Source: a virus
Taxonomy: Duplodnaviria > Heunggongvirae > Uroviricota > Caudoviricetes
DNA: 58,638 bases
Strand: one strand, 5' to 3'
IMG/VR virus record: IMGVR_UViG_2870479586_000001
Coordinates: 1 to 58,638 of that record
This document shows, one piece after another, positions 15,001 to 18,000 of this stretch; position 1 is the stretch's first letter, and every line of letters starts with the position of its first letter. Position numbers: made by a program.

Positions 15001-18000
15001 CGCGTGGTCGGGAATGCCAGGTAAGAATCCCTGGCGTATGTAATGGCAATTCTGAAACGTCTGTACTGGCACATATCCGGCTGGCTGGATTGTGCGGTAC
15101 CGGTATCAAACCGCCAGACCTGATTGCCACCATCGCATGTTCTGCCTGTCACGACGAAATCGACCGCCGCACACATTTTGTCGATGCTGAGTATGCAAAA
15201 GAATGCGCGCTGGAAGGTATGGCGAGAACACAGGTTATCTGGCTGAAAGAGGGGGGTATTAAGGCGTGAATACCTACAGCATCACATTACCCTGGCCTCC
15301 GAGCAATAATCGCTATTACCGCCATAATCGCGGGCGCACGCACGTCAGCGCAGAGGGGCAGGCATACCGCGATAACGTCGCCCGAATCATTAAAAACGCA
15401 ATGCTGGATATCGGCCTGGCTATGCCTGTGAAAATCCGTATTGAGTGCCACATGCCGGATCGCCGTCGCCGTGACCTGGATAATCTGCAAAAAGCCGCTT
15501 TTGACGCACTCACCAAAGCAGGTTTCTGGCTGGATGATGTTCAGGTCGTTGATTACCGTGTTGTGAAGATGCCCGTTACCAAAGGTGGGAAGCTGGAGCT
15601 GACCATCACTGAACTGGGGAATGAATGATGTTTGAGTCTTATATGGCAGAACGTCTTCGCCACCGCTGGATGCGCCTGCGCTTATATCGTTTCCCCGGTT
15701 TTGTTTTGACCGATTACCGGATACTGAAGAATTACGCCAAAACACTGAAAGGAGCTGCCGCATGAATACCCAATATTTACAGTATGTCCGCGAGCAACTC
15801 ATTGTGGCTACTGCTGATTTGAGCGGAGCAACGAAAGGCCAGCTTGAAGCCTGGCTGGAGCATGCACAATTTGATACTGGTACATATAAACGAAAGAAGC
15901 CGCGCATTCTGGATGAGGTAACGGGCAAGATGATTACGCTGGATAATCCGCCGATTTCCGGTAAGCAGTCGTACGCAAAAGGTTCATCCATTGCACTGGT
16001 CAGCCAGGTTGAGTTCTCAACATCTTCATGGCGCCGCGCGGTTCTGTCTCTCGAAGAACATCAGAAAGCGTGGTTGCTGTGGAGTTACAGCGAAAGTGTT
16101 CGCTGGGAGCATCAGGTTGCCATAACGCAGTGGGCATGGAACGAGTTTAAGGCTCTGTTAGGTAAAAGAAAAATTGCCAGTAAGACACTGGAACGCTTAA
16201 AGAAGTTGATCTGGCTGGCGGCACAGGATGTGAAGAACGAGCTGGCAGGGCGTAAGACCTATGAATACCAGGAGCTGGCATCACTGGTGGGAGTGACATC
16301 AAAAAACTGGTCTGAGACATTTACTGAACGCTGGGTTGCAATGAAGCACATTTTTCTACAGCTTGATAGCCAAGCTTTATTGCTTTTAACGAAAACACGT
16401 TCAAAACAAAAGACGACATTTTCACAGCAAAGTATTGCAAAACTGGATTAAAAAGCATATATTTCGTGTAAATCTGATATTTTGCCAATGTTGTACGCAC
16501 TGGCAGTAATCCAAATTCAAGCCCGAGGTTTAAAACTTTGGGCTTTTCTGTTTCTGGACGGTGAGTAGCCTTCCAACCTACCCCAGCCAGGGTGTCTTCA
16601 ACTGTTGAGTTGATATTGCTTAACCCTCTGTTGCCAGCTACATGCTGGCTTTTTTATTCCAGGCTTGCGGGGAGCATCAACTCCGTGCTTTGTCGTTAAA
16701 TTACCCCGTGAGCCTGATTTCTGACATTTAACGTCCCGGCCTTTTGTCGGCGGCGAAACATTGGCTATTCATATGCATGAAAAAGAGAGCCTTGCCGGAG
16801 CGTTCTGGCTCGTTTTGCTGATCATCGCAGGTTGGGGCGGTCTAGTCCGCTACCTGATAGATGTGAAGCAGAGTAAAGCAACGTGGAGTTGGATAAATGC
16901 TCTGGCTCAGATAGTGGTATCAGGATTCACCGGTGTTATTGGTGGCCTGATCAGCATCGAAAGTGGATTCAGTATTTACATGATTCTCGCGACAGCGGGG
17001 ATTAGTGGTGCGATGGGTTCGGTTGCACTGACGTACTTCTGGGAACGACTGACAGGGGTGAAAAATGCAAAATCTTAATCCTCAGCGTAAGGCTTTCCTC
17101 GATATGGTGGCATGGTCAGAAGGAACGGATAACGGACGGCAGAAAACCAGAAATCATGGTTATGACGTCATTGTAGGCGGAGAGCTATTTACTGATTACT
17201 CCGATCACCCTCGCAAACTTGTCACGCTAAACCCAAAACTCAAATCAACAGCAGCCGGGCGCTACCAGCTTCTTTCCCGTTGGTGGGATTCCTATCGTAA
17301 GCAGCTTGGCCTGAAAGACTTCTCTCCGAAAAGCCAGGACGCTGTGGCATTGCAGCAGATTAAAGAGCGTGGCGCTTTACCGATGATTGATCGCGGTGAT
17401 ATTCGTCAGGCAATTGACCGTTGCAGCAATATCTGGGCTTCACTGCCGGGTGCTGGTTATGGTCAGTTCGAGCATAAGGCTGACAGCCTGATTGCAAAAT
17501 TCAAAGAAGCAGGCGGAACGGTCAGAGAGATTGAGGTATGAGCAGAGTAACCGCGATTATCTCCGCTCTGGTTATCTGCATCATCGTCTGCCTGTCATGG
17601 GCTGTTAATCATTACCGCGATAACGCCATTACCTACAAAGCCCAGCGCGACAAAAATGCCAGAGAACTGAAGCTGGCGAACTCGACAATTACTGACATGC
17701 AGGTGCGCCAGCGTGATGTTGCTGCGCTCGATGCAAAATACACGAAGGAGTTAGCTGATGCGAAAGCTGAAAATGATGCTCTGCGTGATGATGTTGCCGC
17801 TGGTCGTCGTCGGTTGCACATCAAAGCAGTCTGTCAGTCAGTGCGTGAAGCCACCACCGCCTCCGGCGTGGATAATGCAGCCTCCCCCGACTGGCAGACA
17901 CCGCTGAACGGGATTATTTCACCCTCAGAGAGAGGCTGATCACTATGCAAAAACAACTGGAAGGAACCCAGAAGTATATTAATGAGCAGTGCAGATAGCG

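Follow-up and report, generated by a model that had tools for sequence, protein, structure and literature searches.

An apparent frameshift in the overlapping Rz and Rz1 spanin genes of an Escherichia coli prophage is probably a homopolymer under-call

Does a single missing C disable both spanin genes of a lambda-like lysis cassette, or is the base absent only from the assembled consensus? The sequence analyzed here (58,638 nucleotides, IMG/VR record IMGVR_UViG_2870479586_000001, hereafter the window) raises this question because it has a five-C run within the overlap of Rz and Rz1 where lambda has six. The original prediction presented both genes as altered and left the choice between a pseudogene and an artefact open. 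Our analysis strongly favors the artefact; where the heading of that prediction implies spanins altered within the organism itself, it is probably wrong. We put the probability at roughly 87% that the five-C run is a homopolymer under-call in a long-read (nanopore-type) consensus and that the DNA of the organism carries six C.

The lysis cassette and its altered frames

The window is a segment of the E. coli chromosome that starts in proA (1-1254) and continues through a tRNA-Thr and a prophage of ~41 kb, 3' of which lies a degraded, older lambdoid remnant. The early and lysis genes of the ~41-kb prophage are lambda-like, and its late region is of the contractile-tail type. This prophage is an extra insertion relative to near-identical strains, and the closest relatives of the chromosomal backbone do not carry it. 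Rz and Rz1 are located in the late lysis cassette, downstream of Q, holin, and endolysin and upstream of bor/iss (Table 1), which is the same place as that of the embedded spanin genes of lambda (rzpD/rzoD in E. coli). Also as in lambda, Rz1 starts within Rz and lies wholly inside it in the +1 frame. Unlike lambda, whose holin is S, the window encodes a holin of the LydA type. The orthologue of endolysin R is termed a glycoside hydrolase family 24 protein in PGAP naming.

Table 1. Features of the lysis cassette and single-base indels elsewhere in the window
Feature	Position	Strand	Basis or remark
C4 to C5 insertion, probably intergenic	6677..6681 (extra C at 6681)		Versus four relatives
Q	15762-16451		Upstream of holin, in lysis cassette
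Holin, LydA / holin superfamily III type, intact	16773..17078	+	PF16083, 77.7 bits; identical to the L163 holin
Endolysin R, lambda R-like, intact	17065..17541	+	150/158 identical to lambda R
Rz (i-spanin) ORF as written, 133 aa	17538..17939	+	Rz residues 1-115 plus last 16 residues of Rz1
Rz1 (o-spanin lipoprotein) ORF as written, 49 aa	17758..17907	+	Out of frame after P44
Displaced frame, Rz C-terminus (second coiled coil CC2 and C-terminal domain including Cys152)	17888..17998	+	Translation; domain map from PMC5295617
bor/iss lipoprotein gene, downstream of lysis cassette	18030..18323	-	
C6 to C5, YmfQ-family baseplate gene ymfQ (36208-36791) frameshifted	36256..36260 (deletion ~36255)	+	Versus A38
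C3 to C2, tail fibre gene	37356		Versus A38
G4 to G3, tail-fibre assembly gene	38372		Versus A38
T4 to T3, alternative fibre gene	38982		Versus A38
T3 to T2, alternative fibre gene	38999		Versus A38
G5 to G4, AraC-family gene	41825		Versus A38
TT to T, last 9 residues of remnant-prophage integrase rewritten	42626	-	Two concordant genomes
G5 to G4, inverse-autotransporter ORF split	53241	+	Two concordant genomes

Five C occupy positions 17884..17888 of the plus strand (context, GCCTCCCCCGACTGG), and the same run in reference lambda has six (CTCCCCCCGACTGG); the difference on which the prediction was built is thus confirmed by the window sequence and the lambda reference. Translation and a comparison with Pfam also bear out what had been said of Rz, in that the ORF follows this protein as far as ...GVDNAASP and then switches into the C-terminus of Rz1 (16 residues). 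More specifically, the product as written matches positions 1-90 of the 126 in the Rz model (PF03245, 120 bits) and then positions 24-40 of the 41 in the Rz1 model, and, unlike lambda Rz, it is devoid of residues 116-153. The Rz1 ORF retains the lipobox LVVVGC and Cys29; it ends early at ...QPPPTGRHR, as translation of the 49-aa ORF verified, so that it covers positions 1-25 of the 41 in PF06085 (38.8 bits) and, unlike lambda Rz1, is missing residues 45-60. The frame read from 17888 indeed yields the lambda Rz C-terminus. The claimed match of R and of the first 115 residues of Rz to lambda holds as a close one, although the Rz part is identical at 112 of the 115 positions rather than throughout.

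Both frames are altered because one C is missing from the run, and adding a single C restores both proteins. The repaired Rz has 153 aa, ends at 17998, is identical to lambda Rz at 150 of 153 residues, and spans the whole of PF03245 (1-126/126, 181.8 bits). The repaired Rz1 has 60 aa with its TGA at 17937-17939, still inside Rz, and it shares 59 of 60 residues with lambda Rz1 and covers positions 1-40 of the 41 in PF06085 (72.2 bits). These figures support the proposal that one missing base explains the state of both genes. After repair, the N-terminal transmembrane domain, Cys99 and Cys152 of Rz, and the lipobox Cys20 and Cys29 of Rz1 are all present, as they are in lambda. The fusion-like reading of Rz is a deterministic reading-frame effect and not a chance resemblance.

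Single-base indels across the window

Divergence between close E. coli genomes consists mostly of substitutions, and frameshifts in coding sequences are selected against. A comparison of the window with near-identical, independent genomes revealed indels in runs that are biased toward deletions and disproportionate to the number of substitutions. The late region is 99.72% identical to that of strain A38 over 23.8 kb, and most late proteins are 100% identical to their A38 counterparts; between 19250 and 42580 there are 7 substitutions and 6 single-base deletions, all of the latter in the window and in runs of 2-6 bases. In addition, the 16.1 kb of backbone 3' of the prophage shows no substitutions relative to 2015C-4136CT1 and one relative to Z1323HEC0355, together with 2 deletions. 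The near-clonal comparisons total ~39.4 kb, with 8 deletions, no insertions, and 7-8 substitutions. Besides the Rz site, the window has at least 8 single-base deletions and 1 insertion, all in short runs (Table 1), and its error density is ~1 per 6 kb.

Several of these sites have the appearance of intact genes interrupted by one base. Protein identity is 100% on both sides of the frame switch in three of them, namely ymfQ, the gene for tail-fibre assembly, and the AraC-family gene. The affected ymfQ run is C6 in A38 and UID2309220003 and reads CCGCCC in S51, TK3896, and EC02, and C5 at this run occurs in 3 of 987 records. The inverse-autotransporter ORF has 1174 open codons in relatives versus 354 + 849 in the window. 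We also looked for a cIII-like gene that the extra C at 6681 might disrupt and found no convincing gene there. The deletions at 37356, 38372, 38982, and 38999 fall within the Pin-invertible tail-fibre segment that adjoins pinE and is flanked by a pair of inverted repeats (37079-37098 and 39012-39031), and mixed read orientations at this segment may have degraded the consensus.

Ordinary decay of the prophage would be expected to leave other marks as well, yet the late CDSs compared with those of A38 are full length except for the single-base frameshifts, and the genes of the 41-kb prophage compared with that strain showed neither an IS insertion nor a substitution that creates a premature stop. 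The runs of A/T of 6-7 bases and the three G6 runs in the window agree with those of relatives, and 17 kb of late genes contain no indels. A blanket model in which all long homopolymers are shortened was rejected, given that the G6 and A/T runs are correct; the errors depend on sequence context. Judged from these genome comparisons, the spectrum of indels and substitutions is one of consensus error, and we infer that the missing C in Rz is an error of the same class as the other indels in the window.

The C-run in related genomes and on DNA of known sequence

Six C are found in lambda and in about 99% of relatives. A 71-base stretch identical to that of the window, with C5, occurs in ~40 of 4437 E. 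coli complete-genome records and in 4 of 376 phage records, and nearly all of the remaining records of this stretch differ from it by a single gap, i.e., they have C6. PGAP annotates the 5-C form as a frameshifted rzpD (e.g., in UID2309220003, 98E11, and RM8426), and the predicted products of these genomes are the same as those of the window. Neither 98E11 nor RM8426 has any frameshift besides that of the 5-C rzpD within 12 kb on either side, and the allele is found there amid ordinary prophage decay (an internal stop and IS insertions). In some of the PGAP-flagged genomes, the allele is the sole nearby frameshift and may be genuine, whereas in the window about nine others accompany it. Furthermore, one 133-aa variant (P0004) is on record for 64 contigs from several sources, and C5 is also present in the genomes of two plaque-forming ECOR phages, PhiR30_1 and PhiR63_2. 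We consider that a real 5-C allele probably exists somewhere in nature.

The lysis cassettes nearest to that of the window, those of TK3896, EC02, and 2022CK-00450, share its Q-holin junction and exceed it in length by one base, at 99.4-99.6% identity over 2.3 kb. Inspection of TK3896 and EC02 confirmed the C6 run in both, along with an rzpD that is intact at 153 aa; S51 likewise has C6. The exact 133-aa product is present on only a few contigs, all of which carry a DUF3800 gene that is absent from the window. Two of its carriers are megabase-scale contigs that have lost bases at CCAGG motifs and in which terminase, portal, endolysin, and tail terminator genes are split. Another two, short contigs from Logan with 3% divergence between them, both show G4 to G3 in the holin gene as well as C6 to C5 in Rz; deletions shared at the same runs by diverged alleles point to systematic miscalling. 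The other public copies of the exact 133-aa product all come from error-bearing assemblies.

A template of known sequence showed how this run is called. When species-representative genomes were scanned for the run with 5, 6, or 7 C, the matches included ~3.5-kb contigs in unrelated taxa (among them Arcanobacterium, Flavobacterium, Cohnella, Brevibacillus, Pedobacter, Polaromonas, and Aeromicrobium), all of which cover lambda 45042-48488 and carry the Sam7 change. The DNA control strand of Oxford Nanopore is a 3.6-kb amplicon of the 3' end of lambda (10.1101/2023.12.06.570356), and on account of their span and the Sam7 change we identify these contigs as that control strand. Its template has C6. 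Among eight control contigs, seven from species-representative genomes (C6 in four, C5 in two, and C7 in one) and one from IMG/VR (C5), the run was thus read as C6 in four, C5 in three, and C7 in one, and it was the sole site with recurring errors. Two GenBank entries described as lambda isolates, OR974321 and OR974322, both have five C as well. OR974322 carries Sam7 and a junction exactly at 45042, and OR974321 is a 3,463-base record whose size fits the control amplicon; both look like control DNA too.

A protein search with the 133-aa product returned many error variants of Rz on ~3.5-kb ENA contigs. Among the 120 nearest protein clusters, 79 share the junction at which ...ASP is followed directly by DWQTP..., almost all of them from such contigs, which indicates that this exact frameshift is repeatedly generated from DNA that does not contain it. 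The window and the control-strand errors agree in the run and its context, in the change from C6 to C5, and in the resulting Rz::Rz1 fusion. They differ in that the window is a chromosomal prophage rather than the control amplicon, and its error density is below that of the worst assemblies (L164).

Alternative readings and what the locus implies

Were the 5-C run real, its consequences could be predicted from lambda genetics. Lambda Rz consists of a transmembrane domain (residues 1-24), the coiled coils CC1 (27-87) and CC2 (121-150), and a C-terminal domain, and the target of the spanins is the outer membrane (PMC5295617). Lysis is defective with all Rz nonsense alleles as far as residue 152, and W46X is the most distal of the null alleles of Rz1 (PMC5295617). 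Since the frames switch after P115 of Rz and P44 of Rz1, both subunits would be inactivated. The expectation that both spanins would be defective and that lysis would stall at the outer membrane accordingly agrees with the published work (PMC5295617); this functional reasoning holds, although the present organism is probably not a case of it. In the real case, the induced prophage would be predicted to have a null phenotype, stalling at the outer-membrane step and giving spherical cells, particularly where the outer membrane is stabilized by divalent cations. It would then be a case of routine prophage gene decay in which one base disables two overlapping genes whose products cooperate.

The reading we prefer is that a long-read (nanopore-type) assembly consensus would have dropped one C from a C6 run, while the organism would have a normal lambda-type cassette of holin, endolysin R, and embedded Rz (153 aa) and Rz1 (60 aa), with no biological defect implied. 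It is the likelier one because the prior frequency of 5-C alleles is at most ~1%, the assembly shows a deletion-type error about every 6 kb, and the run is miscalled in about half of the control contigs. Counting against an artefact are the observations that the assembly is not grossly noisy and that C5 alleles are on record in 98E11, RM8426, the 64-contig variant, and the ECOR phages. The main alternative is that a slipped-strand mutation truly shortened the C6 run and one event thereby disabled both spanins. Homopolymer runs are genuine mutation hotspots, the 5-C allele is on record in ~40 complete E. coli genomes with PGAP flagging it as a frameshifted rzpD, the allele of 98E11 and RM8426 sits where prophage decay is under way, and the lambda alleles described above attest that such truncations are lysis-defective. 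We nevertheless regard slippage as unlikely here: besides its low prior, it would have to coexist with some nine other single-base indels in genes that are otherwise 100% identical, an indel-to-substitution ratio that is implausible for natural divergence, and it concerns a run that is demonstrably miscalled on control DNA and that is C6 in the nearest alleles. An extension of the same idea, which we find still harder to accept, holds that the 5-C allele is real in the window and recurs independently in E. coli prophages and viable lambdoid phages, the C6 run being a slippage hotspot that silences both spanins in one reversible step. If this were true, a single hit at the run would provide a route to domestication of the prophage, or to lysis that is conditional and depends on cations.

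Mixed populations and recoding are, taken together, highly improbable. A culture of 5-C and 6-C cells, in which the consensus reports a minority or near-equal 5-C form of a variable-length tract, has in its favor only that C-runs are prone to slippage, and six bases are few for high-frequency phase variation; moreover, some of the window's other indels affect runs of no more than two or three bases, a pattern that points to a basecalling origin instead of a biological one and leaves such a mixture very little weight. The chance that the 5-C form is both real and functional is smaller again, close to negligible. Ribosomal or transcriptional frameshifting would have to restore Rz, and no slippery heptamer of the form X XXY YYZ occurs in the sequence TCC CCC GAC; a working Rz::Rz1 fusion, for its part, would lack CC2 and Cys152, both of which are required (PMC5295617), and control DNA generates the identical fusion as noise. 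On the basis of the sequence and the published genetics, we rejected both programmed frameshifting and a fusion that works as a spanin.

Once repaired, the locus is ordinary for the lambda Rz/Rz1 family of embedded spanins, and the apparent defect is best filed as not real. What the window offers instead is a caution, namely that the C-run of lambda-type Rz/Rz1 genes is a site of recurrent miscalls, so that a "frameshifted rzpD" in a long-read E. coli assembly should not be read as spanin loss unless accurate reads support it. Many of the public database entries that list a "frameshifted rzpD" or an Rz::Rz1 "fusion" protein are explained by the same miscall site.

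Residual single-base indels in the window

The YmfQ-family baseplate gene is frameshifted in the window at a short C run, which reads C6 in E. coli A38 and UID2309220003 and CCGCCC in strains S51, TK3896, and EC02. This short (C5) form was found in just 3 of 987 E. coli records, and the YmfQ proteins of the window and A38 display 100% identity on either side of the frame switch. Beyond ymfQ, comparison with near-identical genomes uncovered eight more single-base indels in short runs. They break genes for a tail fibre, for tail-fibre assembly, and for an alternative fibre, as well as an AraC-family regulator, an integrase C-terminus, and an inverse-autotransporter ORF. 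Collectively, these indels indicate that the window is a long-read consensus with a residual error of ~1 per 6 kb.

Features in the window (nt positions) and deposits of lambda control DNA (L numbers, retrieved contigs or loci)
Feature	Position or record	Remark
Frameshifted YmfQ-family baseplate gene	36208-36791	run 36256-36260, C5 in window
Single-base deletions	37356, 38372, 38982, 38999, 41825, 42626, 53241	vs near-identical genomes
Single-base insertion	6681	vs near-identical genomes
Inverted repeats	37079-37098 and 39012-39031	20 nt, 95% complementary
pinE	39093-39644	Pin recombinase gene
Control-strand deposits	L008, L010, L012, L021, L026, L028, L037, L142; GenBank OR974317-OR974325	

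Prophage insertion and variable segments

At tRNA-Thr, the 41 kb prophage (window ~1400-42530) is inserted in tandem as an additional element; in the near-identical strains 2015C-4136CT1 and Z1323HEC0355, this site holds the older lambdoid remnant (window 42534-58638) alone. Since the prophage adds to that remnant, exo-bet-gam is duplicated in the window (4464-6228 and 49438-51202, ~98% identical). The Q-holin interval (16452-16772) is without the ~1.1-kb, minus-strand DUF3800 gene found between Q and holin in S51, UID2309220003, and two further assemblies (L163 and L164), and the same short junction occurs in TK3896 and EC02; the interval looks like a variable accessory-gene slot. Between the inverted repeats, and adjoining the Pin recombinase gene, lies a ~1.9-kb tail-fibre segment that contains four of the deletions. 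It appears to be a Mu G/e14-type invertible segment for host range.

Lambda control DNA in public records

The lambda control strand of Oxford Nanopore, which spans lambda 45042-48488 and carries Sam7, has been deposited under unrelated organisms as contigs or "plasmids," such as CP136411.1, labelled Arcanobacterium hippocoleae "plasmid unnamed1," and Brevibacillus "pContig2." The chicken-swab "Escherichia phage Lambda isolates" also appear to be the control strand under another label. Assemblies of Pseudomonas and Shewanella contain full-length lambda contigs of ~48.4 kb (L004, L023, and L035). A 93 kb contig of the spider Caerostris extrusa carries an annotated lambda-type i-spanin of 135 aa (protein cluster P0120), presumably bacterial, phage, or control-DNA contamination of the eukaryotic assembly.

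5-C rzpD in other assemblies

The Shiga-toxin-type strains 98E11 (L171) and RM8426 (L172) also carry a 5-C rzpD (locus 11689-12149), with no other frameshift in the 12 kb to either side. Because this lone frameshift lies amid ordinary prophage decay, some lineages may host a genuine 5-C rzpD allele. At CCAGG (Dcm) motifs, the chromosome-scale assemblies L163 (GCA_045608745.1) and L164 (GCA_045572775.1) are missing individual bases, and numerous phage genes are split in both. This base loss is a methylation-motif error signature, and it provides a handy marker of assembly quality.
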